From sequence record NC_070872.1: DNA of 64,000 nt. One strand, written 5' to 3'. The DNA is from Escherichia phage U1G. Made by a program: the position numbers and the translations under genes. Shown here in pieces: positions 113 through 54,866 of the stretch. The stretch's first letter is position 1, and each line of letters begins with the position of its first letter. The notes beneath the pieces are model-generated. The model was not told the origin of the DNA. It did no database searches and saw nothing but the letters and a program-made list of their open reading frames with translations.

Positions 113-127
113 ACATGCTCCGCATGT
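113..127 (+). promoter_or_regulatory. Hairpin acatgc-TCC-gcatgt; candidate N4-type virion-RNAP early promoter
   Basis: 6-bp stem, 3-nt loop (GGA on template strand), followed by tTATGG; same architecture recurs at 949, 1210 and 4980. Confidence 0.4.
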
Positions 128-943: not shown

Positions 944-948
944 AAACC

Positions 949-1713: not shown

Positions 1714-1722
1714 TCAACCACT

Positions 1723-2156: not shown

Positions 2157-2158
2157 CT

Positions 2159-3270: not shown

Positions 3271-3313
3271 ATTCTTGAATAGTTAGATATGTATTTAAAT
3301 AGGAGAAATAACC

Positions 3314-3622
3314 TTGAATGAAATAGTATGTATACTTCCTCACCAAGCTAAAGTAGCTGACAGGAATATACGGGTACATTTACCATTCCCATTAAGTAAT
3401 CCATTTGCTCGTAATGAAAGAACCACGGTAGAAGATATAGAGGTAGCTTATGAGGCTTACCTTCGTAATCGTCTTATTAGTGGTGACAAGTTAATTACAG
3501 CAGAGATGGAAAGGATTGCATCCTTTGTAACAGATAGTACAGGTAAACCCGTTGGTTTAATTGGTACTGAATCTGATGTTAACGTTATTCGTAAAATACT
3601 AATGGAGGCATTAAGCCAATGA
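3314..3622 (+). CDS. hypothetical protein (TTG start)
   Basis: ORF; AGGAG 8 nt upstream of TTG. Confidence 0.5.
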   Translation: MNEIVCILPHQAKVADRNIRVHLPFPLSNPFARNERTTVEDIEVAYEAYLRNRLISGDKLITAEMERIASFVTDSTGKPVGLIGTESDVNVIRKILMEALSQ

Positions 3623-4973: not shown

Positions 4974-4979
4974 GTAATA

Positions 4980-4994
4980 GCTGCTCCGCAGCTT
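4980..4994 (+). promoter_or_regulatory. Hairpin agctgc-TCC-gcagct; candidate N4-type virion-RNAP early promoter
   Basis: Same stem-TCC-stem plus TTTGG architecture as 949 and 1210; lies just upstream of the RNAP II genes. Confidence 0.4.
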
Positions 4995-5026: not shown

Positions 5027-5845
5027 ATGTACTCATCCATTGAACATCAGAAGCAACTCGAAAAACTATTCAATAAAAATCAGCTCTTGCCTCGCATGAG
5101 GAAGGAATTCGAGGACTCCAAAGAAATTGACTTTAAGGCATTCGCTGCCTATTTGGAAATTGATTATAAGCTGCTCATTGATGCAATGGTGCAGATTGCC
5201 CTACATAAACGTGCTGACATCCAAACTATGATTGGCTCTCTTATGAGCCATTCAGATGATGCTCAGTACATTGCTGACTGTCTGTATAAGATGGCAGAGA
5301 ATGACTGCTTCAACTATGACCCTACCATCGACAAGTTCGGTGTTATCTATGAGATTAGTGAAGATGTTCAGATGGAACTAGAAGCATTCCAGTATCCATT
5401 ACCTATCGTAAGTGCTCCTAAGCCTGTTCTGTGTAACCGTGATACAGGTTACTACGAGAGCAGGGGAAGTATCATCCTCAAGAAGAACCATCATGAGATG
5501 GATGTCTGTCTTGATCATATCAACCGCATGAATAATCAACGTCTAAGCATTAACTGGGACGTTGCTAATTATGTAAAAGACTCTCGTCCTAATATGGATA
5601 AACCCAAAGAGGGTGAAACCCGTCAGGACTATGAGAAACGAGTTAAAGCCTTTGAGAAGTACAGCCGTACTGCTAAGGAAGTAATGGAGTTAGTGACCCA
5701 AGAAGGTAATAACTTCTCACTAGCACATCGTTACGATAAGAGGGGCAGAACCTATGCCTGTGGCTACCATATTAACTATGCAGGTACTTCGTGGAATAAG
5801 GCAGTAGTAGAGTTTGCTGATAAGGAGTTAGTAAATGAAGACTAA
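5027..5845 (+). CDS. phage RNA polymerase II small subunit (N4 gp15-like)
   Basis: 272 aa, directly upstream of the T7-like catalytic subunit; size matches the N4 RNAP II p4 subunit as recalled. Confidence 0.55.
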   Translation: MYSSIEHQKQLEKLFNKNQLLPRMRKEFEDSKEIDFKAFAAYLEIDYKLLIDAMVQIALHKRADIQTMIGSLMSHSDDAQYIADCLYKMAENDCFNYDPTIDKFGVIYEISEDVQMELEAFQYPLPIVSAPKPVLCNRDTGYYESRGSIILKKNHHEMDVCLDHINRMNNQRLSINWDVANYVKDSRPNMDKPKEGETRQDYEKRVKAFEKYSRTAKEVMELVTQEGNNFSLAHRYDKRGRTYACGYHINYAGTSWNKAVVEFADKELVNED

Positions 5846-6042: not shown

Positions 6043-7260
6043 ATGCAACTGTTAACCGCTAAACAATATCTGAAAGTAGACATTGCCAATTCTTATGGCT
6101 TAGATAAAAAGACATGGGATGAGCGTATCTCTTGGTTCGATGAGAACGAAGCTAACCTGCTTAATCTGGTAGATGAAGCTGAAGATTCTGCACTGTTCTT
6201 TGCTGGTGTAAACGCATGGAAAGATATGAAAGCTGGTAAGCCTATTGGTTATGCCGTAGCACTGGATGCTACATCATCAGGCTTACAGTTACTGGCTTGT
6301 CTGACTGGTGACCGTTCTGCTGCTGAATTGTGTAACGTAGTTAATTACATGGGAGAGAATGGTAAGCCATTACGTCGTGATGCTTATACAGTTATCTATC
6401 ACAAGATGCTGGACATCCTTGGTGAAGCATCTCGTATTAAACGTAGTGACACTAAACAGGCAGTTATGACTGCGTTCTATGGTTCAGAAGCTAAGCCTAA
6501 AGAAGTATTCGGTGAAGGTATTCGTCTCAAGACTTTTGAGAATGTAATGGAAACTGTTGCTAGTGGTCCTTGGGCACTTAACAAGTTCTTACTGCAATGT
6601 GGTAACCCGGATGCTAACCGTTACGTATGGATACTGCCTGACAACTACCATGCTGTCATTAAGGTAATGGTTCCTGAAGTTCAGACTGTTAACTTCTTAG
6701 GTAAACCATTCGACATCACTCGTATGGTTCAGGGTACTGAAGAGAAGACTCGTATGCTCTCTGCTAACATCACCCACTCTATTGATGGAATGGTGGTACG
6801 TGAGATGCTACGTCGTTGTAACTTCGATATGAACCAGGTGAACTATATTAAGTCCCTCTGTGAAGGAACTGGTGACTACATGGTAGGTTCTGATGATAAC
6901 TATGAAATGGTTAATACACTGTGGACTAGTTATGAGAAGTCAGGATTCCTGTCTACTCGTATCTTTGATTATCTGGACTCAGAAACAATTGCATTGGTTG
7001 ATACAGATGTAATCATGGCTATGCTCAATACCCTGCCTAAGAAACCATTCCCTGTAATGACTGTACATGACTGCTTCCGTTGTCATCCTAACTACGGTAA
7101 TGACTTACGTCGTCAGTACAATCAGATTCTGTCTGACATTGCTAAGAGTGACCTACTGGGCTTCATCCTGTCTCAGGTACTGGGACAAGAGTTCTCTGCT
7201 GGTAAGCTGGATGACAGCCTCTGGCAAGACATCCTTGAAACAGACTATGCATTAAGTTAG
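6043..7260 (+). CDS. phage RNA polymerase II catalytic subunit, T7-like (N4 gp16-like)
   Basis: LDATSSGLQLLACLTGD (motif A), KQAVMTAFYGS (motif B), VHDCF (motif C). Confidence 0.8.
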   Translation: MQLLTAKQYLKVDIANSYGLDKKTWDERISWFDENEANLLNLVDEAEDSALFFAGVNAWKDMKAGKPIGYAVALDATSSGLQLLACLTGDRSAAELCNVVNYMGENGKPLRRDAYTVIYHKMLDILGEASRIKRSDTKQAVMTAFYGSEAKPKEVFGEGIRLKTFENVMETVASGPWALNKFLLQCGNPDANRYVWILPDNYHAVIKVMVPEVQTVNFLGKPFDITRMVQGTEEKTRMLSANITHSIDGMVVREMLRRCNFDMNQVNYIKSLCEGTGDYMVGSDDNYEMVNTLWTSYEKSGFLSTRIFDYLDSETIALVDTDVIMAMLNTLPKKPFPVMTVHDCFRCHPNYGNDLRRQYNQILSDIAKSDLLGFILSQVLGQEFSAGKLDDSLWQDILETDYALS

Positions 7261-37325: not shown

Positions 37326-40300
37326 TTAGTTAGTAAGGTTGAGCCAAGGGTTCAGGTTATGGGCACGTAAGCCTTGACCGAAGCCCCAGGAGTAACCGAG
37401 ATTGCCTTGTGCAGCAATACTGAATATGTTGTCCTGAATAGGTAAACCAACATTACCAAACATGGTAGGAGTTGGAGCCAATATAGCCATAGCTGCATGT
37501 ACCGGGTTATTACGAATCATGGATACTGCAATTTTTGCAGAACGAATCTTAAAGTTATAGAACCACATTAAACCAACACTTTCCATATATCCACGGAAGC
37601 GACCAGGTAAACGGTCGTAGTTAATGAACTCTTCCGTTACACGCCCCAGTGCTTCTTCACGAGTCTTACCTTTACGCTGAGTCAAATCATCATAGATGAT
37701 TGCTTTAGCAATAAAGTCAGAGTACTCAACCGTCTTCTGGATACCCTGGAAGAGAGCAGTATCCTTAGTGATAAGAGCATAACGTCCAGCGTTGCGTACA
37801 GACTTAGGTAACTTATCAGCCAGTTTATCCATGTATTCGTGAAGTTTACCTTCGGTAATCAGGATGTCATCACGTCCAATACCTGCATCTGCAATTGAAG
37901 AGAACTCACCCGCTTCTAACAGAGGCCAAATACTCATACGCTTATGGCTATCAGTGATGGACTGAATCTCAGCCTTAAGCTTACGAATCTGGTTCGGGTT
38001 AGTAGCTGCACGTAATTCTGCTTCTGCATCTACCTGACGCAGACGAGATTTCAGGTACTGATTAATCTCAGCAGTCTTCTGTGGAATGCTCTTAGCAATG
38101 TTCTTAACAGGTACACCACGAGCAACCATCTGGTAAAGGTTAGCCAGGAAGTTAACAGCAGGTACAACTACTGACTTAACCACAATCAGAGTCTTAGCTT
38201 CTTTAACTAAGTTCTGAACCAAGTTCTCACCACCCATTACATACTTATAGGCACGGTTACCGAAGACACCCAGCATAGCTTTCTTGAAGGTATCCAGTGT
38301 TTCTGGGGACCAACGAGAATTACCAGACCAGGCATCACCAACAGAAGCTGCACGATAACCTAGTGCATCGTTGAGCATGTCACGACGTACCCACAGCTCA
38401 CCCGGGCCAAACAGACTTTCTGCTTTCTGACGAGTTTCACTGTTCATCAGCTTAAGTGCATCAGCAGTTACTGGGTCCAGTTTAGAACCAAGAAGGTTAA
38501 CGTACTGAGACTTATTAGAGACAGACATCTTAATGTCGTTTTCATACATGCTATGCAGGTTCTCAATCAGCATATCGTTGAAACGCTGGGCCTTAGCTTC
38601 CTCCACCTGACGTCCACGCCATACACCAATTGCACGAGCAAGATGGTTCTCACCTTCAATGTGCTTCAGCATATTAGGGTCAATGGATTGCTCGTAAGCA
38701 ACCACATTACCATTGGCATCATATACAGGCAGCAGTGGTTCATTACCACGTTCACCACGAGCCAGTGCTTTAGTAATACGGTCTACAGAAGGCTTGTCAG
38801 TAATACGACCTGCTACCATGGTTCCCATCGTAAAGCCTGTACCAAGGTCTACACCACCAGCAGTATTGCGAACGTTCTGTAGGATACCCTGTGAGAATGG
38901 AGCCTGTGCCTGTACAGGTGCGAAGTAGTAGCTACGTGCTGGACCACGGTTAGCAGAGCTACCCTGATAAGTACCCAGACGTACATAGGATTTTTCAATC
39001 AAATCAGCAAATTGGCTATCTTCAGCAACAATCAGGTTAACACCTTGTTTAGTCTCACCAGGAATATACCCTTTGTACTGGTTCAGGGTTGCACGAGTAT
39101 CCGACTTGGCTTTAGCCATTTCATCTTTACGCTGACCAACCAGGTAAGAGGTAGCAAAGTCCATGCCTTCAGTTTCTGTTTGAGCCAGTGAAGATAACAT
39201 CTCACGGTCAGTCTTACTCATTGCTTCCAGTGCATACAGAGTAATCAGTTTATCCAGTTGAGCTACGTCTACAGTAGAACGTGCAGACTGGCGTTCTCCC
39301 AGCATACGAGAGATTGCTGTAGCATTACGCAGCAGGTTATTACCAACTGTACCGTTAATCATGTACTGAGCCAGTTGCTTAGATTTACGGCTAATCAAAG
39401 GCCAGTTACGTCCTGCTTGTTTCTGCAAATCTGCTTCCAGTTTATTAACCTCACGGTCAACAATCTTCTGGTCAGTCAGCAAGTCACGGATTTCAGCCAG
39501 AGACATAGTGTCACGCAAAACAGCTAGGTCAGTTTTACCCATTCCAGTATGCATTGCTTTCCACTCATCATTAGTCAGCTTACGGCTGAACTTAGATGCG
39601 ATAGTGGTAGGCAAATGTTCACGGAACTGTTGACGGTCAGCCTGTACCTGTGCACGTACTGCTTTAATCAAATCGTATACAGAAGCATTACTCTTAGTAC
39701 GACCAGTTAGGTCATTAACCAGGTCATGGAAAGGTTGCCATACTTTACCCTGGTTCATTGCAGCCATAACACCTTCAGCTACGATTTCACCATTCTTCTC
39801 TGTAGCAATAGCAGCTATTAGTTGTGCAGCATGAGCAGCACCTTTGACCAGTGGGTTCTTGGTATTAGCTGCAACTTCACGAGCACCTTCCAAAGCACGG
39901 GTAGACAGTACATCAATAGAATCCACCAGATACTGGTTAGCACGGTCAATAGCATTACCACTAGGAGTAGCAACGGAATCATAGAAGGATTGTGCATTAA
40001 GACTCGTCTGCATGATTGTCTGAGCCAGTGCATCCATACCTTCCTGTACGTTAGTGGCTTTAGTATCACCTGCTACGCGAGCATTCAGACTAGCCATTGC
40101 AGCAGTACCAATGTTAGTCAGCATTGCATCAACTGTATTACCAGATTGCTTATCTGCTTTCATAACTGGAATGTCAGCCAGTACTTTGCGTACTTCTTCA
40201 CTTACCATTGCCAGACCAACAAAGGTAGGTAGTAAGGAAGAACGACCCTGTGCATCAAACTCAATATTGTTAGCACCCATGATGGTATCGAACTTCTGTT

Positions 40301-43300
40301 GAGCGTAGTAACGGTCAGCAGGGTTAGTACTATCTGGGTCAGCCATGAACGCTTCAACGGTCAGGTTCTTAGTAACATGCGTGTAGTATTCCTGTGCACG
40401 AGCCAAAGCAGCTGGGTTAATAGCAGCCTCAGTAGCCAGAGCAGCAACAATGTTAGTGAAAAGACGTTGTTCCTGCATATTCATAGTGAAGCCATGAGCC
40501 TGAACATCACGAGTTACTTTAGTTGCATTCACTACTGCATCAGAGAACTTACCTTTACGAATTACTTGCTGTACTGGTTCAGAACCAATGTAGTCAGTAA
40601 TCAGTTTATCGAAGGTTTTGCCCAACTCTTCCAGACGAGTATTGTCACCATATGCTTTGTTATGGAACAAAGTAGTATCTTTGGCTACAGCAGCAGTAGG
40701 AGCTTGTCCACGCATTACTACAGCAGAGTTAAACAATAAGCCGGAGAACATATCATCAGCATTAGCTGGTGCTTTCTTACGACCAAATACCAGACGCTTG
40801 ATTGCTTCATATACAGCCTGAACCATTGTTTTCAGTGCAGTAGTTTTCTTCTGCTTACTAATCAGTTCACGGTTAGTTAAGCCCCATGCCATGTACTCAT
40901 TAAGTGCAGCAGCTTTAGCCATTGCTGGTTCAATGAAGCCATTAGACAAGTGACCATTAATGGTATTAAGTGCATCAGCATATGCCTCACGTACTGCCGG
41001 GGATTCATCCTTAACATCCAGAGCACGGAATTGATTCATCAGGTCTTCAATATTCTGTACTGCTTCATTAGGAGTACCTTCGTAGTGAGCCAGTACAGAT
41101 TCAAAAGTAGAAGCATGTACTAATTCATGAACCAGAGTCTCTAAGGAAGGAGTAACTAAGTAGATGGTCTTATCTTCGAAGTTAGTCCAGCCGTATGCAT
41201 TACCAGCTTCAGCAGCTTCAATATCTTCCGGTGCTGGACGAGTAATGTTCTTCTCAATAGCATAGGCATCCAGTTGAGAAGGTGTACCGTAAACAACCTT
41301 GTAGTCTTTAGCAGCAAGGGATTTCTGTACTTCTTTCAGTACTGCTTGCTGTTCCGGAGACATCTCTTTAGCCAGCTTAGAGATAGCAGTATTAGACAAC
41401 AGACGTACACCAGATTTCAGTACACGACCAACCTGTTCCATTGCTGGTACTTCTTTCACTGGTTCTGCTTTAGCAGCACGTACTGCATCACGACGCTTGT
41501 TTAATTCAGCATCAAACAGTTCGTTCAGCTTAGCTACTTGTTGGTCTACGGTCAGACCTTCCAGAGAGATTTTACCGTTGTTCACATAAGGAGCACCAAC
41601 AGCAGCCATCTGGTCAACAGTAGTCTGTACCTGGTTCATTACTTTGTGGCGAATATCCACACCCAGTGCAATGTTACGCAGGTTACGTTCAATCTGTTCA
41701 GCACCAATACGTAACAAGTCATCAGTAGCACCCTCACGTTGGTCATATTCCAGAGCAGATTTAGCGATAGCCTGTTTGGTTTCATCAGACAGTTTGCTGA
41801 AGTCTACGTTCTTCATGAACTTAGAGAAGGAGTCATAAACATTCTTGATAGGGTTACCCTGCCAGGAAGTGTATACAGCCTCGTTAGCTTTACGACTTGC
41901 ATCAGTGATGTTATTGATACCAATGTTCATACCATCAAAGATTTTCAGAGTATTCTTCGGAGCACCCTTCATAGTAGAAAGGGTCTGCATCATCATGCCA
42001 TCACCAGTACCAATGGTCATAAATGGAATACCTGCAACACCTGCCTGTGAAGGAGCATAGATGCTCATTGGCACACGCATACGGTCATCTAAGTTGGTAG
42101 CCAGTACTTGGTTAGCAACATCAGTATTCTCACTACCAGCAATGTAGAAAGTCTGTGAGCCAGTCTCAATCATTGGAGCCAGTGGAGACAATGATTCCTG
42201 GATTTCATTCAGTTCTTTCTGTGTTAAGAAATCACCCTTCTTCCATGTTGGGTCTTTTTCTTTTTCTGCCAGCTTAGCCTGTACTGCTTGTTGGAACATG
42301 TCTTGCAGAACCAGAGACTGAATCTGGGTAGCCTTCTGCAAGTTCTCAGTAGAGTGCATCAGACCTTCGCCAACAGTATTACGAATACCAGTACGCATTG
42401 GTTCAACGAACAAGTGAAGCATGTTTTCTTGCAGGTTCTTCAGGGCATTCCCAGATACGGTAAACTTCTGAGGGTCTAACTTACCAGTCAGAGCACCTTC
42501 TACCTGTTGAATAGACAGTTGACCTTTACGCATAACTGGAACATTACCAGTCAGTGCTTCCATGGACGTAAGGAAAGTATCCAGCATAGCCTGAGCATCA
42601 GCCTCAGACGCAGCCTCCTTACCAAACATTGCCATAGCTGGGGAAATGCTAGGGTCAGCAGCGCGAGCTTGCAGAACATCACTGAAGCGTTCATAGATGG
42701 TGTCAGTAATTGCACTAACCATCTTGCCAGCAATACCACGAGCACCGGAACCATAGATGGTAATAGTCAGTGGGTTTTTAGCGATACCACGTTTCAGGTC
42801 CAAAGTACCGTCTTCATTCAAGTTAAAGTCTTTAATGAACAGGTCCATTAACTTCTGAAGATGATTCATCTGGTTCATAACCGGAACGTTGTTACGGTAA
42901 GTAGTACGTAACTCATTCAGTGCTTGTTGCAGACCATTAGTAGATGCTTCATACAAGTCAACACTATCATCCTGTGAACGATGTTCGTTCATAGTCTTAC
43001 CGGCTTTACCGAAGAACAGACCACCTTTAGCAGTATTCTTAATCCAGTCTGAAGTAAACCTACCACCAGTCATTAATACCATTGCGTTGATTGGTCCGTT
43101 AGTTACACCATCGGCTTCAACGTACAGTGGGGTATTAAAGTTAGCACGGTCATCACTGTTCAGGTAACGGGCATACTCCATCAGAGCCATGAGAGCTACG
43201 AAGGATTTATCGCCACCAAGAGACGTCTTCAGAATATCTACTGCATTGGCAGGTAAGTGACCAGACTTATCAAACTCAACCATCATATCTACAGCAGGTT

Positions 43301-46300
43301 TCAGATTACCTTCCAGAGCTTTAGTCAGCTTTTCAGACATAGCTTCACGGGACATGTTATGTACCTTGATACCTAATGCCTGAGCCAGACCTAACTGGAA
43401 GTCAGAGAATGTTTGGCTGTTTTCATTACTCAAGTCAATAGTAGAGAAGGTTGGCAGAATTGCTTCACGAACCAGTTTACTGGATTGTGGATTGTTCTTA
43501 CCTAACATCTGCATACGACCTACACGGGTCATGTTGTAACCATAGTGAATAGGCGTATCCAGACCATTCTCCTGTTCCTGTAATTGATTGATTACACCAA
43601 ACAAAGAGTCATATGCCATAGACACTGACAGGTTCTTACCTTCCAGTGATTTAGCAGTATTCACGTTCAGCAGTTCAGGATTAAGAGTACCAGCACCCAT
43701 CAGTTCCAGAATGTTGTCACGACCTAATGCTTCATAGAAGTTAACCATCGGCATGTGTACACGGAACTCGGTAGCCTGTTCTGCTTTAAGAGCAGCTTTC
43801 TGCTCTGGGGTATTCTTAACAGCAGGGTTACGTAACTGAGTTTGAGCCACGGAAGGAATATCATCACCAAAGTACATTTTCTCTTCTGGTTCTACGAGAA
43901 CAGCTTCCTCGATAGCAGTAGGGAACTTGTTAATGGCATCGTTATCGTCCAGCTTCTCAATAGTATATAGACCAATAGTCTTATTGGAGTCTGGGTCAAT
44001 CTCAGACACATCAAGCATAGATTCTTTAACTTCACCCATCTCAATGAGAGAAGACAGAATCTCTGTAGCCATTGCCATTGGAATACCTTTGGTATAACCC
44101 AGTGGTGCATTTGGATTACGGTCCAAACCCCAGTAAGATTCAATCTTTTGAGCCAGTGAGTTAGTAGCTTCAACCAGAGTCTGAGCATTCTCGAATTCAG
44201 CCAGAATACCTTCTGGTAACAGAGATGCTTCTACACCAGTAATAGCAGCTACGTCTTTCATATCTTTAACAGCAGCATTCTGTGTAGCAGTCAGTCGCCA
44301 TTGCAGACCAGCAAGTACAGCAGTTTCTAACAACTGGTCATTAAACTTAAAGGTATCCCCATCTTTCTCTACGATGTTAAGTAACTTACCACCTACCCAA
44401 CGGTTAGCTTCAGTACCTTCTGCAAAACGTTTACCTACGTTCTTATTAGCAAGGAACTTAGCCAGACGGTCAGACAAAGTAGTCTTCAGAGTTTCGCCAA
44501 AATCAAATAAGTCCTGATAACGCTTAATCACATCACTTGTGAGAGCGTTATTTTCTTTTTGAGTGAATGCTTCAAAGCGAGCAGCAGAAGACAGTGCTTT
44601 CTTAACATCAGTCAAAGGGGATTCAGAACCAATGGTTCGAGACTTAGATTCTTCCGGCAGAGTAAATGCCTTAAGGAACTGGTTCGGTGTCTTGTCATTG
44701 TTATAGACAGGGAACACTGTTTCCATTTGAGATAGGGGTTTACCACCAACGGTATAGTCTGCTTTCAGTTGAGCCAGAGATACCTCTATCTTCTCAACGT
44801 TATTGGTATTACGCCCAGACGTATCTACACCTATTTGAATCAGTGCATTGTTTGCTTCTACGAATGATTGAACAGTATTGAATTGTTCAGGAGTCAGCTT
44901 CTGATTATCAAACAGTTGCAATGATACAAACGGTTGTTCACTGCCTTTATAGAAGGTAGAGCGAATAGCACCAGTATCTAATGACATATCACGATAACCA
45001 TCATGACCAAATACGTCCGACAAGCTAATGTGGTCACCATTAGAGCCAACAACAGTACCGTCAGCAAAGAGCCAAGGACTCTCTTTACGATCACCATACT
45101 TATTAAGAGTATCTTGAGAAATAGTATTCTCTTTTACATAAGCATCTCTTTCAGATTCAGTAGACTGTACATCAGTATCCTGTTTTTCAGACTGGTTCTC
45201 AGGCTCTTTTACAGACTGTGGTTTAGACTCTTTAATAGTAGATTCTGTTTTAACAGCTTCACTAACAGAGGGTTTAGTCTGTACAGTAGAGGTAACTGGT
45301 TCCTGTTTCATAACAGGAGTTTCATCAACCTGATTCACTGGTTCATTGGTCTGTTGAGACTGAGTGGCATCAAGACCACCTTGACGGAACTCTTTAACTA
45401 CCTGGGCAGCAGGCTTGTCCAGACGTGAATCCAATGGGGTAACTTTCACATGAGAAACATTAAGCTCCGGGTAAGCCGTAGCAAGTGCATTAGCAATATC
45501 AGCTACGGTCTTGGCCTCCAGTCCTACTTGCTGGGCAAACTTAACAGACTTGGTATCATACGGATTGACACCGAGGCCAGTACGACTACGTACCCATTCA
45601 CGGGAAGGAGTAAGAGCCTGATAATGGACAGACTTATTCTTATCCGCATTCCCAGAAATCAGATGCTCATTCAACGCTCCGACCTTATTCTGCATGTGCT
45701 GGGCGAACTTCATAAAGTCGTCGAGATAAGCGGAAGCCAAATCGAAGTTACCAGAGTTGTACGCAGAACGAATGCGTTTAGCATGTTGCAACGCAGAGTA
45801 CTGACCTTCATTAGAACGAGACTCGTCGGTTTTAATTTGTTTACTAACAATATCTTGAGGACGTAAGCCTAATTCTTCTGCTTTAGCGTCGAATTCACGT
45901 GCACCCTGTAACAAGGCAGCAGCCGATTGCAGGGCAGCACGTTGTCTATTCCCCAGTGTAATCTTACCTTCACTTGCATGTTTCAGAACCATGTTCACTG
46001 AATCTGCATCCAGTACTTCTGGAGACATATCAGCAGCCATAGCAATGTTGTTTGCTTGGGTTTGGTTAGCTTCTTCAGTAGCTTTCAGTTTACCCGCTTC
46101 AGCCTGCTCCTGAATCATGGAATGAATGGCACGGAATGCACGAAGTACCTTCGGTGTATTCTGAACGTTAGCCATCAGGCCAGAGAACTGGTCAACAATA
46201 TTAGCAGCATGAGAACCTTGTTCCAGGTTAGCCAGAGCACCTGGGTCACGGTTAATGAAGCTATCCATAGACATGATATTGTCATACATCTGGATTGCAG

Positions 46301-48080
46301 CTTCCATTTGAACGTTAGGGTCTTCAGCAGTATTAACCAGGTCAGCCATCTTCTGAATAGCTTCAACACGGTTAGTGGAACCAGAAACAGCTTCACGGAT
46401 TGCTGGGTTAGCTTGTTCCAGTTCTACTGGGTCAAACTTCATTGCCTGAGTTAAGTCAGCAGCATACTGGGTAGCAGCAGCTTTCTCTTCAGGGGAAATG
46501 TCCATTGCATCTACTGCTTCCTGTACAGTTTCTTGTGCTTGCTCTGCCTGAGCAGTAGCTTCTTGTGCAGCAGCATTAACCGTAGCATCTGATACAGGAG
46601 ATGCTTGTTCATTACGCTTAGCAACTTCTTCACCACGTTGAACCAGAATGTTAGTAATAGGAGAGGCTACTTTTGCTAGTGCCTTACCAGCCAGAGAAGC
46701 ACCAGCCAGGGTAGTACGTACAGCAGGACCAACGGCAGCACCAGCAGCCTTAACAGTTGCACCAGGAGCTTGAGCAACTCCAGCAGAACCAAAGCCGTAC
46801 AGTGCACCAAGACCTGCTTGTTCACCGACACCTTTAAGCAAATCACGCTTAGCATCTACATTACCTTGAATTGCTTTATTCTGTGCAAACTGACTAGTAC
46901 CAGACTGAATACCTTCTTCTACGGTTTCACGGAGCATGTTAGAGCCAGCACCAGCCAGTGAACCTACCTTAAGTGGGTTAAGTTCAAATTTGGATACCAG
47001 TGGACCAGTAGCAGCAGCAACTGGAGCAGTTAATCCAGCAGCAATGATACCTGTTTCAGATGCAGTCTGACGACGTGCTTCTTCAGGAGATAAGCCATCT
47101 TTAATATGTTGTTGGTATACAGGAGATTTGGCAGCCAGTTCACTAAATGGCATTTCCATAATTTCATTAGCAGTCTGTTGGTATGCACCACCTGCTTCCA
47201 TGCCACCAATTGCAATAGCAGGTGCAGCAACACGACCAGCAGACAATGCAACCTGTGCAGGACGAGAACCTAATTCAGCAGCTAAGGTAATACCTTTAAC
47301 AGCTTTATCTCCACCTACCATTACTTTGCCAAGTGCAGATACACCACGGATAAGAGGACCACCAGTAAACAGAGAACCAACACCTTCACTCAGCCCGTCA
47401 GAAGCAGCCATACCATTATCAAGTGTATTAGCAACAGAATCAAAAGCATCACGACCAATGCGAGACAGAGAGGCAACCAAACTGCTCTCCCCATTTTTAA
47501 TGTCTTCTTCATAGAGTTTCTGGTTCTTTTGTGCAGAAATCTGGTTCTGATTCTGAACAACCTTACGGGTAGCATTCAGTGCATCAGACTGTAGGTTGTG
47601 TACACCTTTGTTCAACCAGTCAAGACCGGAAGCAATGGTTGCCCCGGCATTATCATTGACCAGACCTGTGCCAAGAGCAGCAATACCCCCAAGGGTATTA
47701 GCAACACCAAGACCAACACCAGAAAGAGTATCGCCAAATGCTTCTGCGTTAGTACGTTGTTTAGATAAGTCCTGACGTACAGCATCAGCAGCATTAGCTC
47801 GGCTATTAAGAATCTGTAGACCTTGCTCATTACCATATTTATTAAGAATTTCTAATGGGGAGGCTTGAGTGAAATCTGCCTGAAGTGAACCTGGTTCGAA
47901 TGCACCGATTCCAAGATTACCTACACGACCAGTTTGGAGATTGTAAGCATTCTCTGGGGTTAATTGGAAAGGGCTTTGCCCTTGTGCAGCTTGCTTCTGA
48001 GAGGTTGCAGTAGAGACATCGACTTGCTTAGCATTAGTGATGCTGTCTGCGAAACCTGCCAGACGGTCAAATGTTGACAT
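37326..48080 (-). CDS. virion-encapsidated RNA polymerase (giant vRNAP, N4 gp50-like)
   Basis: ~3584-aa ORF at the promoter-distal end of the late operon; size and position match the N4 vRNAP; ATG 48080 preceded by AGGAAA (longest ORF starts TTG 48098). Confidence 0.75.
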   Translation of the reverse strand: MSTFDRLAGFADSITNAKQVDVSTATSQKQAAQGQSPFQLTPENAYNLQTGRVGNLGIGAFEPGSLQADFTQASPLEILNKYGNEQGLQILNSRANAADAVRQDLSKQRTNAEAFGDTLSGVGLGVANTLGGIAALGTGLVNDNAGATIASGLDWLNKGVHNLQSDALNATRKVVQNQNQISAQKNQKLYEEDIKNGESSLVASLSRIGRDAFDSVANTLDNGMAASDGLSEGVGSLFTGGPLIRGVSALGKVMVGGDKAVKGITLAAELGSRPAQVALSAGRVAAPAIAIGGMEAGGAYQQTANEIMEMPFSELAAKSPVYQQHIKDGLSPEEARRQTASETGIIAAGLTAPVAAATGPLVSKFELNPLKVGSLAGAGSNMLRETVEEGIQSGTSQFAQNKAIQGNVDAKRDLLKGVGEQAGLGALYGFGSAGVAQAPGATVKAAGAAVGPAVRTTLAGASLAGKALAKVASPITNILVQRGEEVAKRNEQASPVSDATVNAAAQEATAQAEQAQETVQEAVDAMDISPEEKAAATQYAADLTQAMKFDPVELEQANPAIREAVSGSTNRVEAIQKMADLVNTAEDPNVQMEAAIQMYDNIMSMDSFINRDPGALANLEQGSHAANIVDQFSGLMANVQNTPKVLRAFRAIHSMIQEQAEAGKLKATEEANQTQANNIAMAADMSPEVLDADSVNMVLKHASEGKITLGNRQRAALQSAAALLQGAREFDAKAEELGLRPQDIVSKQIKTDESRSNEGQYSALQHAKRIRSAYNSGNFDLASAYLDDFMKFAQHMQNKVGALNEHLISGNADKNKSVHYQALTPSREWVRSRTGLGVNPYDTKSVKFAQQVGLEAKTVADIANALATAYPELNVSHVKVTPLDSRLDKPAAQVVKEFRQGGLDATQSQQTNEPVNQVDETPVMKQEPVTSTVQTKPSVSEAVKTESTIKESKPQSVKEPENQSEKQDTDVQSTESERDAYVKENTISQDTLNKYGDRKESPWLFADGTVVGSNGDHISLSDVFGHDGYRDMSLDTGAIRSTFYKGSEQPFVSLQLFDNQKLTPEQFNTVQSFVEANNALIQIGVDTSGRNTNNVEKIEVSLAQLKADYTVGGKPLSQMETVFPVYNNDKTPNQFLKAFTLPEESKSRTIGSESPLTDVKKALSSAARFEAFTQKENNALTSDVIKRYQDLFDFGETLKTTLSDRLAKFLANKNVGKRFAEGTEANRWVGGKLLNIVEKDGDTFKFNDQLLETAVLAGLQWRLTATQNAAVKDMKDVAAITGVEASLLPEGILAEFENAQTLVEATNSLAQKIESYWGLDRNPNAPLGYTKGIPMAMATEILSSLIEMGEVKESMLDVSEIDPDSNKTIGLYTIEKLDDNDAINKFPTAIEEAVLVEPEEKMYFGDDIPSVAQTQLRNPAVKNTPEQKAALKAEQATEFRVHMPMVNFYEALGRDNILELMGAGTLNPELLNVNTAKSLEGKNLSVSMAYDSLFGVINQLQEQENGLDTPIHYGYNMTRVGRMQMLGKNNPQSSKLVREAILPTFSTIDLSNENSQTFSDFQLGLAQALGIKVHNMSREAMSEKLTKALEGNLKPAVDMMVEFDKSGHLPANAVDILKTSLGGDKSFVALMALMEYARYLNSDDRANFNTPLYVEADGVTNGPINAMVLMTGGRFTSDWIKNTAKGGLFFGKAGKTMNEHRSQDDSVDLYEASTNGLQQALNELRTTYRNNVPVMNQMNHLQKLMDLFIKDFNLNEDGTLDLKRGIAKNPLTITIYGSGARGIAGKMVSAITDTIYERFSDVLQARAADPSISPAMAMFGKEAASEADAQAMLDTFLTSMEALTGNVPVMRKGQLSIQQVEGALTGKLDPQKFTVSGNALKNLQENMLHLFVEPMRTGIRNTVGEGLMHSTENLQKATQIQSLVLQDMFQQAVQAKLAEKEKDPTWKKGDFLTQKELNEIQESLSPLAPMIETGSQTFYIAGSENTDVANQVLATNLDDRMRVPMSIYAPSQAGVAGIPFMTIGTGDGMMMQTLSTMKGAPKNTLKIFDGMNIGINNITDASRKANEAVYTSWQGNPIKNVYDSFSKFMKNVDFSKLSDETKQAIAKSALEYDQREGATDDLLRIGAEQIERNLRNIALGVDIRHKVMNQVQTTVDQMAAVGAPYVNNGKISLEGLTVDQQVAKLNELFDAELNKRRDAVRAAKAEPVKEVPAMEQVGRVLKSGVRLLSNTAISKLAKEMSPEQQAVLKEVQKSLAAKDYKVVYGTPSQLDAYAIEKNITRPAPEDIEAAEAGNAYGWTNFEDKTIYLVTPSLETLVHELVHASTFESVLAHYEGTPNEAVQNIEDLMNQFRALDVKDESPAVREAYADALNTINGHLSNGFIEPAMAKAAALNEYMAWGLTNRELISKQKKTTALKTMVQAVYEAIKRLVFGRKKAPANADDMFSGLLFNSAVVMRGQAPTAAVAKDTTLFHNKAYGDNTRLEELGKTFDKLITDYIGSEPVQQVIRKGKFSDAVVNATKVTRDVQAHGFTMNMQEQRLFTNIVAALATEAAINPAALARAQEYYTHVTKNLTVEAFMADPDSTNPADRYYAQQKFDTIMGANNIEFDAQGRSSLLPTFVGLAMVSEEVRKVLADIPVMKADKQSGNTVDAMLTNIGTAAMASLNARVAGDTKATNVQEGMDALAQTIMQTSLNAQSFYDSVATPSGNAIDRANQYLVDSIDVLSTRALEGAREVAANTKNPLVKGAAHAAQLIAAIATEKNGEIVAEGVMAAMNQGKVWQPFHDLVNDLTGRTKSNASVYDLIKAVRAQVQADRQQFREHLPTTIASKFSRKLTNDEWKAMHTGMGKTDLAVLRDTMSLAEIRDLLTDQKIVDREVNKLEADLQKQAGRNWPLISRKSKQLAQYMINGTVGNNLLRNATAISRMLGERQSARSTVDVAQLDKLITLYALEAMSKTDREMLSSLAQTETEGMDFATSYLVGQRKDEMAKAKSDTRATLNQYKGYIPGETKQGVNLIVAEDSQFADLIEKSYVRLGTYQGSSANRGPARSYYFAPVQAQAPFSQGILQNVRNTAGGVDLGTGFTMGTMVAGRITDKPSVDRITKALARGERGNEPLLPVYDANGNVVAYEQSIDPNMLKHIEGENHLARAIGVWRGRQVEEAKAQRFNDMLIENLHSMYENDIKMSVSNKSQYVNLLGSKLDPVTADALKLMNSETRQKAESLFGPGELWVRRDMLNDALGYRAASVGDAWSGNSRWSPETLDTFKKAMLGVFGNRAYKYVMGGENLVQNLVKEAKTLIVVKSVVVPAVNFLANLYQMVARGVPVKNIAKSIPQKTAEINQYLKSRLRQVDAEAELRAATNPNQIRKLKAEIQSITDSHKRMSIWPLLEAGEFSSIADAGIGRDDILITEGKLHEYMDKLADKLPKSVRNAGRYALITKDTALFQGIQKTVEYSDFIAKAIIYDDLTQRKGKTREEALGRVTEEFINYDRLPGRFRGYMESVGLMWFYNFKIRSAKIAVSMIRNNPVHAAMAILAPTPTMFGNVGLPIQDNIFSIAAQGNLGYSWGFGQGLRAHNLNPWLNLTN

Positions 48081-48142
48081 AGCATGTTTCCTGTTCAAAC
48101 TTATATCGTATATAGGAAGCTTACTCTACAGTAAGCCTGTGT

Positions 48143-48165
48143 AAGAAAAAAGCCCCGAAGGGCTT
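48143..48165 (-). terminator. terminator/attenuator hairpin upstream of the vRNAP gene
   Basis: On - strand: gccc-TTCG-gggc followed by TTTTTT. Confidence 0.5.
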
Positions 48166-48174
48166 TTATTAGTA

Positions 48175-50138
48175 TTACCGATTTTGTCTTGGTTGCATAT
48201 ACTCAGGCAAACCTTGTGCCTGACGTAGGTAACGTGCAGCACGTTCTTCATCTTCCTTGGCTCGTGCTCTGTCCACACTAGCCTGTGACCGAAAACCTCT
48301 TGGAGCCAGGTTATCTGGGTCTGCTTGTACTTGGGCTTGTGCAGCTTGTAGCATTGCAGCAGCTTTAGTAACAGCCTCCTGACGAGCAGGTAACAATGCA
48401 GTAAGACCTGTTTGTCCAGTGTTAATCTTGTTCTGGGTATTTGTCAGTGCAGCTACAGCAGCATCATAAGCAGTCTGTGCTGCCTGAATATTCTGCATAG
48501 CTTGAGCACGTCCGAGATTACGTACACTGCCTTCCAGTGGTTCGCCTCGTTGTACACCCTCAATTAACTGATCTACCAGACGGTCATTAAGACGCATACC
48601 ATTACCAGCTTCATTAGTAATGAATGGGTTAACTGCATCAATAGCACGGCTAATGTACCCTTCTGGTACACCGGTCTGTGCACGTTGCATAACAGCAGCA
48701 GCCATAGCTGGTGACATATTTCCACGTTGAGAAATATCAGTTAGTCGGTTAAGTACCCAGTTACGGTCAGCACCCTTAAAGTCACCATCCAGTAGACGAT
48801 TAGCAATCTCACCTACTGGAGTATTATCGGTAACAGTACCCAGGAAATCGGTATTAAGACTACCAGTGTTATCCTGCATAGAACGAGTACCAATCATACC
48901 TTGAGCCAAGGTAGATACTGCCCGATTTCCCTGATTATTCTGAATCAGAGCGAATGGGTCAGCACCTACTTCAGCTTGAGCAATAACAGGTTTAATCTGT
49001 TCCCAAGTCATATCCTTATAAGCACCTGGGGTAGAATTAGGTAAAGCAGCCCAGGTATCTTTAAGGTTACCATTCTTACGAGCCTCAAAAATAGCCTTAC
49101 CAATCTTCTCCTGGTTTTCAGGGGAAAGAGGCTGATTCTTCCAATCTGAGCCAAGAACTTTGGGAGCAAAGTCTTGCAGAGTAGCCTGGTTAATCTGGAA
49201 TGCACCAACAGGGGAAGCACCTTGATTTGTCTTCATGACATCCTGGTGTTTAATTACATCACCTATACTCATTTGAGTAATAGGGGTAGATGTACCAGCA
49301 AACTGATAAGTAACATCATAAGGAGAACCCTGACGAGTACCAGCAGTACCAGGAGCAGATGTAGCACCAACATTATTGCCGTAAACACCAGGGTATGCAC
49401 GAGCAAGCATTTCCTGTAAACGTGCCTGAGCAACTGGAGACAGATTCTTACTATATGCTTCTGCTAACAAACGAGCATCATTAGGGTTCTCAGCACCACG
49501 GGTAATTTGAGACATCACACCCATAGCTGCCTGACTATCAGCATCATTACGTTGAGCCACACCCAAATCAAAACGGTTCTGTGCTTGGTTAATAGCCTGA
49601 CCACCCTGCCCTTGTAGACGACTTAACATATCCAGTTGTTGGTCAGCAGGTAGTGCAGATAACGCTTCTCGCGTCTGACCCAATGCAGCATTAATACGAT
49701 TCTGGTCACCAGACTGATAAGCCTCGGACAATAAACGAATAGCTGGGGATGCATTATCTAATGCAGAGTCAGTATTCTGTAAGCGACCAAAACGATAAGC
49801 ATTATAGTCATTGGTTCCCTGCTGACCTTGTTGAGTCAGAAGAGTACCTGCTCGTTCATCCAGATTCTGGAGAGTACGCTGACTTACCAATGAAGGGTCA
49901 ACCCCTGAAACAATGCACCAGATGCCAAAGCATTACGATACTCAGTAGGGTCTTGATACTGCATAGCATTCATCATGACGGCATTGCCAGCCTCCTGCTT
50001 GGCAGCGTTCTGGAAATTACCCAGTGCATCACTTAAGCCGGAGGTGGCATTACCAATCATGTTGCCAAATGTGCGAATGCTGTCACCAACTCCGGAGAAG
50101 TTAGGTGCATAAACATTACGCCATGTAATTTGAGCCAT
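48175..50138 (-). CDS. internal virion protein (N4 gp51/52-like); two ORFs in this assembly
   Basis: 571-aa ORF has only a TTG start with no SD and 7-nt overlap with the 84-aa ORF; +1 nt in C4 (49902-49905) fuses them (~654 aa). Confidence 0.45.
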
Positions 50139-50150: not shown

Positions 50151-50594
50151 TTAACGGGTTAATTTATTAGCTGCAATATAAGCATCAGCTGAGGACTGGT
50201 CACGGTTCTCTGCTGTAGCACGACTACGAGCACGGTCTTCCAATGCAGTGTTATAGGATTTAATCTGATTATTCAGGTTAGTGTTAGTAACACTCTTAGT
50301 AAAGTTCAACTGGTCTTTGGCTAACTTATTAGCCTGGAAACCACTATAGATATTCGCTAATGAACCAAGTGCACCCAGTCCTAACTGGAAGGTAGGTACA
50401 TTCAAGCCCAACTGATTAGCTGAACCAGACATGAAAGAAGCAGGTGTAGATGTACCCAAATTCGTACCCATACCAATAGTTGCACCTGGGTTATAGTTCA
50501 TAGCCGGGGTATTAAAGTTCTGATTGTTATTAGGCATCCAAGACATAGCAGCTGGCTGTGGAGTTGGGTTGCCTGTTAAGAATGACAAATCCAT
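50151..50594 (-). CDS. virion protein (hypothetical)
   Basis: ATG preceded by AGGAGA; late-operon context. Confidence 0.5.
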   Translation of the reverse strand: MDLSFLTGNPTPQPAAMSWMPNNNQNFNTPAMNYNPGATIGMGTNLGTSTPASFMSGSANQLGLNVPTFQLGLGALGSLANIYSGFQANKLAKDQLNFTKSVTNTNLNNQIKSYNTALEDRARSRATAENRDQSSADAYIAANKLTR

Positions 50595-50607
50595 GGGGAT
50601 TCTCCTG

Positions 50608-53262
50608 TTAAACAAGGTCAGTATTAAGAGTCATATCAGAGTAGTTGCCAACCATGTCTAAGGACAAGTCAGCTATATCTGAACCAGTCATGAGAGTACG
50701 TGATAGGAAAGAATCCAACGACTCCATTGACACGAATTGCATAGGGTCAATTACACCCTGTCCAGCAGTACCAAACATTTCTTCATACTGCTTATTGATT
50801 GCCATCATATCAGTATTGTACTGCTGCATTACTTTCTCTGCTTTCTGAATAGTAGCAGCCGTGGATGCATTAATATACTGACTAATACCATTACCAACTG
50901 AACTGGTAAGCTGCATGATGTTTTGGGCATTCATCATTTCACTTGCCAGAGTGGACAAAGATGTACCGGTAGACAGGGCAGTACCAACATTCATAGCTAC
51001 CATTGAAGCAATAGCTGCAATGATAAAGCCTAATTTATCACCGAACAGTGCGGTAGATACTTTAGTAACAATAGATATCAGAACCATTGCAGCAATAGCG
51101 TTCGCTACAGCACCAACAATAATGGCAGCTAATCCAACAAAACCAAGTGATGCACCAACTGCACCATATGCCCCCAGTATACCTGCACCACCAGCACCAG
51201 CTGTAAATACAGAGACAACCACAGCAACCACTACAACAACAATCTTAAATGCTCCTGTCTGATACCACTTCTGCTTAACCTTCTTATATGAGTTCATCAC
51301 TAAGTAGGAACAGGCAGTAGATAGCTGAGTACTTCGAACCAGCGACATGGAACGGTAGATATTAGTGTGCAGTGGGATAATGAATCCACTCTCCTCTGCG
51401 TCACCCATTGCTTCAGCAACATCAATGTTCACTGATTTATTTTTATATACCCTGTTATTGTGGTTTAAGCCTAGTACCCTGAGTTTACGATAGGTGTCAT
51501 TACCATCCTGCCAAAGTAACTCGTACTCCTGCATAGAATAAAATGTAGTAGTAACCTCAAGCTTCTTAGTTGAGCCAGAGTTACTAGCAGTACGTATGTT
51601 CTTACGAGTAAGAGTTATATCTCCTGCATATCTGGCTCGGAGTTGTCCCTGCTTAGCACCAGACCATGCTTGTCCTGAGTGGGTAGTTTCAGATACGTAA
51701 TTCCAACCAATGGTCATGTCATACTTGTAATGCTTATTACTATGTACCCTAAATTCCCTCTTAGGTATTACAGGGTATTCTGGCAGTGGTGAAGGAGTTC
51801 CAATAGTATGCCCTTCAGTCCTGTTCCACCATTCTACGTAAGCATCAACTGCATCGTTTGCTGCCTGATAACCTGCAATTACTGCTTCCAAAGTCGGGTA
51901 AGTTGGGTCAGGTGGGAATGCTTCAGTAGCCATCTGAAAGAAACGGTAGATGTATTCTTTAGCAGTATCCTCTGGAGTATTAAGGGATACACCAAATGTG
52001 CCATAAATGTACTGAATATCACCTATGTCCTTATTCTTCTTAAGCTCTGTGACTACTTTATCAATTTTTCCACCAGTAGCTTTATAAAGAGCTTTCTTAC
52101 AGTGGGGGTAGATTGGGTCATTCTCTACCCATTGTTTATCATTCCTAATTGGAATGAATGGGTAGAATCGGTTATCGGTAGCTTCAGTTTCAAACAGTGA
52201 ATCCAGTGCAACATTACCGGAGTTCTGTTTATAGATAAGCATTTTGGGTGTACCAACAGCAGTCATCTCAGTGTCAGTACGAGTAGTTTGGGATGAGTAC
52301 TTACGAACCTGTGTCTCTGTGGTTGTAGTGATTGTATCTGTACGTGTAACACCACCACCTATATCAACTACATTAGTAGTTACAGAAGTACTGGATTGAA
52401 CCTCACCAAACTTTTTATGAGTCATTACCCTGTCAGATACAACTACAGTCACATCATCAGGTTTCTCAGTGAATCCTCTACGGTAAACTTTAACGTAGGA
52501 GTTCCAGTTATCCACACTTGGTTCAGTAACAGTACTGTCCTCATCCGGTCTGCCATCAGAGTAAACAGAATGAGTATGTATAGTCTTAGTAAGATTGGTT
52601 GTGTTAGCAGTCGTATCACTTGAGATTGTAGTCCATAACAAAGTGGAAGGTAGGTCATCCTCCTTATCATAAACAGTAGTCGGTCCTACTACTGGTGGAT
52701 TAGTAGAAGGGGACTTATAGAATGTGTAATCAGCATAGAGATATAAAGCACCTGGTTCAAAGTTAGCAGGTGTGAATTTAATAGTAGAACCTCCATCTAA
52801 AGAGGTCATAGTAATTTCATTAGTATCTTCATCAATGTCTATGTCGAATCGTTCCATGATTCGACTTGGAGCATTCTCATAAAGATACTGGTCACACCAT
52901 TGCTCAAAGTCAGCAAAGCCTATCTCTGCTGCCTGAACATAGACTGATTCTCCAGCAGGTGGTGTAATTTGCCCTTCTATAACAGTAGGGTCAATCTTAG
53001 CCAGTACACCTAATGAAGAACCAGCCATACCAACTTCTGAATCATAGTGGTTCTTACTCCAGCTGGAGAACAGTCGCATACGAATACCCGGCCCATTCAG
53101 ATAACTATCAGAGATAGTGTCTGCCATAGTGAATCCAGTATTGGAAACAATGTTACCAATGACAACAGTCTTCATATAGTTTGGGCGTTTATGTATATCC
53201 CCTGCCATGTTATAGACAGAGGATGCTACGTATACTTTGGTCTTCCCACTGAATAAACCCAT
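50608..53262 (-). CDS. large virion protein with glycine-zipper transmembrane segments (putative ejection/channel protein)
   Basis: 884 aa; C-terminal hydrophobic run VVVVVAVVVSVFTAGAGGAGILGAYGAVGASLGFVGLAAIIVGAVANAIAAMVL. Confidence 0.45.
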   Translation of the reverse strand: MGLFSGKTKVYVASSVYNMAGDIHKRPNYMKTVVIGNIVSNTGFTMADTISDSYLNGPGIRMRLFSSWSKNHYDSEVGMAGSSLGVLAKIDPTVIEGQITPPAGESVYVQAAEIGFADFEQWCDQYLYENAPSRIMERFDIDIDEDTNEITMTSLDGGSTIKFTPANFEPGALYLYADYTFYKSPSTNPPVVGPTTVYDKEDDLPSTLLWTTISSDTTANTTNLTKTIHTHSVYSDGRPDEDSTVTEPSVDNWNSYVKVYRRGFTEKPDDVTVVVSDRVMTHKKFGEVQSSTSVTTNVVDIGGGVTRTDTITTTTETQVRKYSSQTTRTDTEMTAVGTPKMLIYKQNSGNVALDSLFETEATDNRFYPFIPIRNDKQWVENDPIYPHCKKALYKATGGKIDKVVTELKKNKDIGDIQYIYGTFGVSLNTPEDTAKEYIYRFFQMATEAFPPDPTYPTLEAVIAGYQAANDAVDAYVEWWNRTEGHTIGTPSPLPEYPVIPKREFRVHSNKHYKYDMTIGWNYVSETTHSGQAWSGAKQGQLRARYAGDITLTRKNIRTASNSGSTKKLEVTTTFYSMQEYELLWQDGNDTYRKLRVLGLNHNNRVYKNKSVNIDVAEAMGDAEESGFIIPLHTNIYRSMSLVRSTQLSTACSYLVMNSYKKVKQKWYQTGAFKIVVVVVAVVVSVFTAGAGGAGILGAYGAVGASLGFVGLAAIIVGAVANAIAAMVLISIVTKVSTALFGDKLGFIIAAIASMVAMNVGTALSTGTSLSTLASEMMNAQNIMQLTSSVGNGISQYINASTAATIQKAEKVMQQYNTDMMAINKQYEEMFGTAGQGVIDPMQFVSMESLDSFLSRTLMTGSDIADLSLDMVGNYSDMTLNTDLV

Positions 53263-54844: not shown

Positions 54845-54866
54845 GAGGGGGACTAATGTCCCCCTT
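54845..54866. terminator. stable hairpin downstream of the major capsid gene
   Basis: GC-rich 9-bp stem with 4-nt loop; T tract on + side, A-rich on - side. Confidence 0.35.

Follow-up and report, generated by a model that had tools for sequence, protein, structure and literature searches.

The virion RNA polymerase (vRNAP) of bacteriophage N4, gp50, has been characterized structurally and biochemically over decades, and full-length cryo-EM structures of it have now been added. The polymerase is present in N4 virions and is injected into the host, where early transcription is resistant to rifampicin (PMC4496689). Passage into the cell involves the ejection proteins gp51 and gp52, with gp52 and gp51 making up a tunnel across the periplasm and a complex at the outer membrane (PMC13434306); vRNAP exits last, and its loosely connected domains fit a channel of ~30-35 Å (PMC13434306, PMC13492108, PMC4496689). 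The N-terminal domain is flexible and has been associated with lipid binding and genome injection (PMC13434306, PMC13492108, PMC4496689), and it is joined to the polymerase by linker 1, a low-complexity, disordered stretch of 100 aa (residues 907-1006; PMC13434306). At the other end of the protein lies an autoinhibitory C-terminal domain (PMC13434306, PMC13492108), which packs on the polymerase and holds the motif B loop and the plug in an inactive state that is released by binding to the promoter hairpin (PMC13434306, PMC13492108, PMC4496689). The hairpin is read by K114, R119, W129, D901 and R904 (PMC4496689), and the ensuing early transcription yields RNAPII and aids genome entry (PMC13434306, PMC13492108, PMC4496689).

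The vRNAPs of N4-like phages have also been classed as polyvalent proteins, in which an RNAP module is combined with a zincin-like peptidase (Iyer et al., 2017, PMC5512222). The peptidase was predicted for the C-terminal region that bears an HEXXH motif (PMC5512222, Iyer et al.), and ART, lysozyme or PBECR domains are variably fused to the same proteins (PMC5512222).

We analysed a 64,000-nt stretch of the genome of Escherichia phage U1G (NC_070872.1), hereafter the window, with a focus on its vRNAP gene. Compared with N4 gp50 (PDB 9PNR, 9PNQ, 11GP, 2PO4, 3C2P), the U1G protein has the same three-domain architecture, the plug and the C-terminal HEXXH motif, and the two phages also share the gp53-52-51-50 gene order, the terminator hairpin upstream of the polymerase gene and the cognate hairpin promoters. 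U1G vRNAP differs in being 84 aa longer than N4 gp50 and in carrying a folded module of 133 aa in place of part of N4 linker 1. Within the genus Gamaleyavirus, the vRNAPs of G7C, Bp4, PhAPEC5 (gp54), EC1-UPM and PE007 agree with that of U1G in length, position and domain order, the inserted module included. Full-length amino acid identity to PhAPEC5 gp54 is 94.9%, and these Gamaleyavirus genes are 90-94% identical to the U1G gene over the full length at the nucleotide level.

Identity of the gene

The initial annotation had described a single ORF of ~3584 aa as a giant vRNAP gene, and we arrive at the same length and coordinates when translation is taken to begin at an ATG. In the list of ORFs the frame extends to the first in-frame TTG (37326..48098, 3590 aa). 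The ATG at 48080 has AGGAAAC just before it and gives a protein of 3584 aa beginning with MSTFDRLAGF, and it corresponds to the annotated start of both N4 gp50 and PhAPEC5 gp54 (MSTFDRLAGF vs MSVFDRLAGF). The probability that 3590 codons remain free of stops by chance is ~e^-206 by our own arithmetic (44% GC, with ~5.6% of random codons being stops), and the remaining ORFs of at least 100 aa that overlap the frame are all short and on the opposite strand. The gene occupies the minus strand, a detail missing from the initial annotation, and the length of its product falls in the range of the gp50 family (~3,400-3,600 aa).

Database comparisons agree on what this ORF encodes. A PDB sequence search matched the full-length N4 gp50 structures at E = 0 with 5059 bits, and the mini-vRNAP crystal structures 2PO4, 3C2P and 3Q0A were likewise matched at E = 0 by the U1G polymerase domain. 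Four vRNAP-specific Pfam domains (vRNAP_dom_2, vRNAP_plug, N4_RNAP_helical and vRNAP_dom) were detected at 1e-29 to 1e-101, among them the N4-specific plug insertion (vRNAP_plug, 3.5e-29), and PHROG 2206, 'virion RNA polymerase', was spanned end to end (5-3405 of 3406 positions). When the gene was compared by megablast with 50,697 phage records, 86 matched, and in 60 of these the alignment took in 80% or more of the gene. The top matches had 90-95% nucleotide identity; no record in this collection exceeded 95% identity over the gene. Almost all of the matching records are Escherichia or Shigella phages of the genus Gamaleyavirus (G7C, Bp4, PhAPEC5, ECBP1, St11Ph5 and others), and most label the gene 'virion RNA polymerase', a few mis-annotating it as a DNA polymerase. 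Taken together with the catalytic and promoter-contact residues described below, these matches bear out the identity originally proposed, and, as judged from sequence, the ORF almost certainly encodes a gp50-family RNA polymerase of the virion-encapsidated type, belonging to a G7C-like coliphage of the genus Gamaleyavirus, Schitoviridae. The gene is already known, in that closely related alleles have been deposited and correctly annotated; that of U1G adds a further allele to the dozens annotated in G7C-like genomes.

Domain layout and conserved residues

Alignment with N4 gp50 placed the central polymerase domain, of the T7-like single-subunit type, at aa 1118-2205 and allowed the rest of the protein to be divided accordingly (Table 1). 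Identity to N4 amounts to 59.5% over the N-terminal portion (aa 1-990 vs N4 1-1004) and to 69.9% over the polymerase and C-terminal domain (aa 1133-3584), and it varies between ~55 and 84% per 100-aa bin within the C-terminal domain. The catalytic and promoter-contact residues of N4 are retained throughout: those of motifs T/DxxGR (R1522), A (D1657), B (R1764, K1768 and Y1776) and C (D2049), the two catalytic aspartates included, are the same as in N4 and lie in the same local context, and the hairpin-promoter contacts K1213, R1218, W1228, D1999 and R2002 correspond to N4 K114, R119, W129, D901 and R904. With N4 numbering mapped through the alignment, all functional residues checked were thus identical (11 of 11); for the four motifs we take the residue numbering to be that of Kazmierczak et al. 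2002.

The low-complexity linker, including aa 925-975, is by alignment count nearer to the N4 version (~80% identical) than to that of PhAPEC5, a pattern that suggests mosaicism in this part of the gene.

Table 1. Positions of the vRNAP gene, its domains and associated elements in the window
Feature	Position	Strand	Description
Early hairpin promoter candidate	113..127	+	ACATGC-TCC-GCATGT
Further early hairpin promoter candidates	949-963, 1210-1224, 4979-4993	+	GCTCCGC heptamer
RNAPII subunit	5027-5845	+	272 aa; PHROG 2166 'N4-like RNA polymerase', 8.7e-115
RNAPII subunit	6043-7260	+	405 aa; PHROG 2051 'RNA polymerase', 5.3e-175
Bidirectional terminator hairpin	37296..37321	.	11-bp stem, 4 nt past the vRNAP stop
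vRNAP coding sequence	37326..48080	-	3584 aa plus stop codon (37326-37328)
C-terminal domain	37329..41435	-	aa 2216-3584; equivalent to N4 2123-3500
HEXXH motif (HELVH)	41115-41129	-	aa 2318-2322, in the C-terminal domain; conserved with N4
Polymerase (Pol, 'mini-vRNAP') domain	41466..44729	-	aa 1118-2205; Pfam and crystal-structure matches
Inserted globular module, 133 aa	44730..45128	-	aa 985-1117; absent from N4 gp50
Linker 1, low-complexity part	45129..45377	-	aa 902-984; rich in T, S, Q, E, K, P
N-terminal domain	45378..48080	-	aa 1-901; equivalent to N4 gp50 1-906
Box GATATAAGTTTG	48096-48107	-	followed by Shine-Dalgarno AGGAAA (48087-48092)
Second hairpin	48117..48138	-	AGGCUUACU-GUAG-AGUAAGCUU
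Terminator-like hairpin and T-run	48143..48167	-	AAAAGCCC-TTCG-GGGCTTTT; between gp51 homologue and vRNAP
gp51 homologue	48175-50138	-	directly upstream of vRNAP; frameshifted in the window
gp52 homologue	50151-50615	-	upstream of gp51 homologue
gp53 homologue	50608-53262	-	upstream of gp52 homologue

A folded module at the end of linker 1

Relative to N4, the insert closes linker 1 and directly precedes the start of the polymerase domain. Its distribution was surveyed by tblastn with a 156-aa probe across the insert, which matched 47 phage records. The insert is present at 91-98% identity in 27 of these (G7C, Bp4, PhAPEC5, ECBP1, EC1-UPM, pSb-1, St11Ph5 and others) and absent from the other 20 (~40%; PBM-2/3, the UE-series, PhAPEC7, IME11, SP5M and others), where only the last 19-23 residues of the probe match; PBM-3 and PhAPEC7, which we read directly, have ~17 aa where the insert would be. 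Since the phages without it include those nearest to U1G in the remainder of the gene (94.7% identity), presence or absence of the insert does not track overall relatedness.

Beyond these close relatives, 22 homologues of the insert were recovered when 1.84 billion representative proteins were searched exhaustively with HMMER; a word-indexed protein search returned 15 candidates, none of them significant. Several of the homologues are giant proteins of 1300-3700 aa from phages and mobile elements that also carry SLT, SNF2-type helicase, methyltransferase, DdrB-ParB or LPD22/38/39 domains, which makes them polyvalent proteins in the sense of Iyer et al., and one (P0012) is a distant vRNAP in which the module likewise precedes the polymerase domain. 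An alignment of 20 homologues revealed eight invariant residues (S, P, L, G, D-H, R, Q) and six near-invariant ones; the conserved positions are mostly polar (S-P-W-L, D-G, D-H, R, T, Q, N) and are kept down to 22-30% identity. The invariant D, H and R correspond to D1016, H1017 and R1040 of U1G vRNAP (D32, H33 and R56 in the alignment). With this 20-sequence alignment as input, AF2 modelled the insert at a pLDDT of 91.8, compared with 49.9 from the single sequence, which was too poor for use.

The insert is thus a real, conserved and unannotated accessory domain common to polyvalent proteins of mobile elements. As a globular domain that recurs in giant proteins of diverse architecture, it fits a family of polyvalent-protein domains; the proteins concerned would be delivered by virions or by conjugation. 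Searches with the insert against Pfam, including the LPD and PBECR models of polyvalent proteins, NCBIfam and a PDB-sequence profile gave no match, and the structural model could not be paired significantly with any solved structure or known enzyme fold. In PMC5512222 we found no description of this domain and no mention of G7C-type phages.

What the module does may be considered from two sides. It could simply be a passive spacer, an additional 'bead' in linker 1 without activity of its own, and we regard this as a real possibility, though less likely than not: the insert is evidently dispensable, being missing from N4 and from the 20 records mentioned above, the linker around it is disordered and of low complexity in N4, and the model shows no significant resemblance to known enzyme folds. 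A spacer would, however, not readily account for the retention of 14 invariant or near-invariant and mostly polar residues among 20 such distant homologues, nor for the recurrence of the domain in many architectures whose other domains are known effectors; conservation of this kind across varied architectures is typical of a functional module. With some reserve we also put forward that the insert may be an undescribed effector or ligand-binding domain, marked by the S-P-W-L...D-G...D-H...R...Q signature and delivered on the injected polymerase in some G7C-type phages, much as polyvalent proteins of other phages and of conjugative elements deliver theirs; this proposal is a tentative one. Should the module indeed be such an effector, its presence in some phages and absence in near-identical others could point to an accessory role early in infection, for instance in counter-defence or host takeover. 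Among known activities, an RNase of the PBECR or BECR fold was not adopted, as neither PBECR profiles nor a barnase/EndoU/colicin-type fold were matched; a PD-(D/E)XK nuclease was also considered and not adopted. Irrespective of its activity, a domain that is well folded and yet dispensable among close relatives offers a natural plus/minus pair for studies of cargo-domain function on injected polymerases.

The spacer between gp51 and vRNAP

The initial annotation had pointed to a terminator hairpin at 48143-48165 upstream of the gene, from which it suggested attenuated expression relative to the capsid genes. The hairpin is real, with the stem-loop at 48167-48148 and the T-run reaching 48143. 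It begins 8 nt past the stop of the gp51 homologue and reads, as RNA, AAAAGCCC-UUCG-GGGCUUUU with more U's following; the stem has 8 bp with a GCCC/GGGC core, the loop is UUCG, and UUUUUUCUU comes next if the U's of the stem itself are counted. The element thereby has the makeup of a Rho-independent terminator, namely a GC-rich stem-loop with a U-run directly after it on the transcribed strand. A simple terminator scanner called the element in the + orientation only, the minus-strand T-run being partly absorbed into the stem. N4, KP8 (Kaypoctavirus), Moo19 (Moovirus) and JZBo1 all have this hairpin unchanged; a single loop base is changed in PhAPEC5, where the equivalent element is annotated as a terminator by ARNold.

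As for its consequences, the hairpin parts vRNAP from gp51 rather than from the capsid gene. The proposed attenuation against capsid-gene expression is a plausible hypothesis that would fit the low copy number of the N4 polymerase, 4 +/- 1 per virion (PMC13434306).

The spacer contains two further elements. Approximately 10 nt downstream of the terminator lies a second hairpin, the stem of which varies in sequence among genera while the structure is kept: it folds in six of six sequences when these are folded singly (-6.5 to -10.7 kcal/mol). Between this hairpin and the Shine-Dalgarno sequence is a box that includes TATAAG, 15-20 nt ahead of the ATG; in N4, KP8, Moo19 and JZBo1 the box is preceded by an A, giving a 13-nt AGATATAAGTTTG that is invariant. 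The second hairpin and the box could mark an independent promoter, a site of RNA processing or an element that stabilises the 5' end.

These elements raise an alternative to the earlier view of vRNAP as a last cistron attenuated by read-through, namely that transcripts of gp53-gp51 end at the upstream hairpin, which would act as an efficient terminator, and that vRNAP forms a transcription or processing unit of its own, set by the second hairpin and the AGATATAAGTTTG box. The argument for this is that the second hairpin and the 13-nt box are kept in four genera while neighbouring intergenic bases diverge. The promoter side of the proposal fares less well, in that a sigma-70 scan of the gp51-vRNAP spacer called no promoter and no suitably spaced -35 element was seen in the spacer sequence; late promoters of N4 are N4SSB-dependent. 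Neither does GATATAAGTTTG behave as a repeated late-promoter motif, since it occurs as a single exact copy in the window, has fewer near-matches than expected by chance and was not found again ahead of other late genes. RNAalifold, applied to a six-genus intergenic alignment, identified no formally compensatory pairs in the second hairpin, the stems being out of register. On this evidence we consider a transcription or processing unit separate from gp53-gp51 doubtful.

Genomic context and the three-polymerase scheme

Placement of vRNAP at the distal end of the late operon, and the three-polymerase scheme that the initial annotation recognized from a hairpin-promoter early region and a two-subunit RNAPII, both hold for the window. 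vRNAP is the last gene of the leftward block of virion genes, in which the minus-strand order, portal ... major capsid ... gp54-gp53-gp52-gp51-vRNAP, matches that of N4. Genes for both RNAPII subunits were found (Table 1).

Promoters of the N4 type, which lie upstream of early genes, are hairpins with a 5-7 bp stem, a 3-nt loop and a GC-rich heptamer. Candidates were sought with the heptamer GCTYCGC, which is complementary to GCGRAGC on the template strand of the N4 promoter, and four were found at the left end of the window, compared with the three described in N4. The number of heptamers is by itself not above chance (4 vs 5.1 expected), in contrast to their position, strand and flanking symmetry: all four GCTCCGC copies fall on the + strand in the leftmost 5 kb, are intergenic and have a perfect 6-bp stem with a 3-nt loop, followed by TGG. 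With vRNAP, its cognate promoters and both RNAPII subunits in place, the vRNAP gene confirms the window as a Schitoviridae genome of the Gamaleyavirus type with a complete three-polymerase programme. A scan of the window with ARAGORN detected no tRNA.

What is observed directly in U1G is homology to N4 vRNAP, conservation of its key residues, the presence of cognate promoters and a matching gene context; by analogy with N4 the U1G polymerase would be packaged in the virion, ejected and enzymatically active. Late in infection, a few copies would be packed into the capsid. Upon the next infection gp52 and gp51 would first build an envelope-spanning channel, after which vRNAP would be ejected via the tail, passing as a chain of loosely joined domains (N-terminal, linker, polymerase and C-terminal). 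Activity of the polymerase would be suppressed by the C-terminal domain until the T7-like core engages promoter DNA hairpins, short structures that supercoiling is predicted to extrude at the early promoters of the left end. Once active, vRNAP would transcribe the early genes, including those of the two-subunit RNAPII, and probably help to draw the genome in.

One irregularity in this block is the apparent frameshift in the gp51 homologue. Within 49890-49910 the gene has a run of four G's where PhAPEC5 has five, and a sequencing error in this homopolymer is the likelier cause; a genuine frameshift would render the ejection machinery of the phage defective. The frameshift next door, and the fact that large N- and C-terminal parts are dispensable for catalysis (PMC4496689), might be taken to mean that the vRNAP ORF has decayed or lost catalysis and is retained only as a structural ejection protein, a notion we consider extremely improbable given an unbroken frame of 3584 codons, T/DxxGR, A, B, C and promoter-contact residues that all equal those of N4, a polymerase domain with 59-93% identity to its N4 counterpart in bins of 100 aa, and cognate hairpin promoters that are still present.

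The bidirectional terminator hairpin beyond the vRNAP stop sits between convergent gene blocks, facing the rightward genes, and has an equivalent in PhAPEC5 that is annotated as a terminator.

Possible mosaic organization of the vRNAP linker

Comparison of the virion RNA polymerase (vRNAP) gene with that of N4 singled out linker 1, which joins the N-terminal and polymerase domains, and within it a low-complexity stretch followed by a folded module (see table). Counting matches in the printed alignment, we find the low-complexity stretch to be approximately 80% identical to the N4 linker, whereas the linkers of PhAPEC5, PBM-3 and PhAPEC7 are very unlike it, although these coliphages are otherwise much closer to U1G than N4 is. 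This N4-like linker, so different from that of the closer relatives, suggests that recombination or mosaicism has occurred inside the vRNAP linker. N4 lacks the adjoining 133-AA module, and so do 20 of the 47 phage records in the comparison; relatives of the module are found in polyvalent proteins, and SPWL, DG, DH, R and Q make up its invariant signature. Searches with the module gave no Pfam match and no significant fold match.

Of the vRNAP orthologues in GenBank, those of PD205, HK2 and PBM-2/3 are mislabelled 'DNA polymerase' and that of ECBP1 (JX415535) 'gram positive anchor domain protein', while in the pSb-1 record the gene is mis-annotated as three ORFs. The ORF-poor stretch at 35067-36824 corresponds to the region downstream of the vRNAP gene in which PhAPEC5 has an annotated tRNA-Ile, whereas ARAGORN detected no tRNA in the entire window.

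Features located in the U1G window
Feature	Position	Strand	Remarks
Spacer between gp51 homologue and vRNAP gene	48081-48174	minus	terminator hairpin, second hairpin and invariant box
Second hairpin of spacer	48117-48138	minus	structure kept across four genera, sequence not
Box core, 12 nt, GATATAAGTTTG	48096-48107	minus	part of invariant AGATATAAGTTTG box
Folded 133-AA module of linker 1	44730-45128	minus	vRNAP AA 985-1117; insertion relative to N4
Low-complexity linker	45129-45377	minus	vRNAP AA 902-984; ETPV.KQEPVTSTVQTK...EKQD
GC-rich hairpin, 9 bp	54845-54866	minus	AAGGGGGAC-ATTA-GTCCCCCTT; directly after major capsid gene stop
Fourth N4-type hairpin promoter candidate	4979-4993	+	AGCTGC-TCC-GCAGCT
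gp51 homologue (N4 ejection protein)	48175-50138	minus	two ORFs in place of one
gp51 homologue, first ORF	50138-49884	minus	84 AA; PHROG 6126 positions 1-80
gp51 homologue, second ORF	49890-48175	minus	571 AA; PHROG 6126 positions 85-666

An apparent frameshift in the gp51 homologue

The ejection-protein gene upstream of the vRNAP gene is split because a G4 run at the break site (49884-49905, minus strand) is 1 nt short of the G5 of PhAPEC5. This homopolymer deletion most likely reflects an error made in sequencing or assembly; otherwise, the split would be genuine and an essential ejection gene disrupted.

Transcription signals

A step down from capsid gene expression, which the initial annotation had suggested for the hairpin preceding the vRNAP gene, would more likely occur at the GC-rich hairpin following the major capsid gene. 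Three early promoters are described for N4 in the literature, compared with four candidates here, the fourth lying approximately 35 nt 5′ of the small-subunit gene (start 5027) of RNAPII, the two-subunit phage polymerase; RNAPII may thus be served by a dedicated early promoter in this phage.
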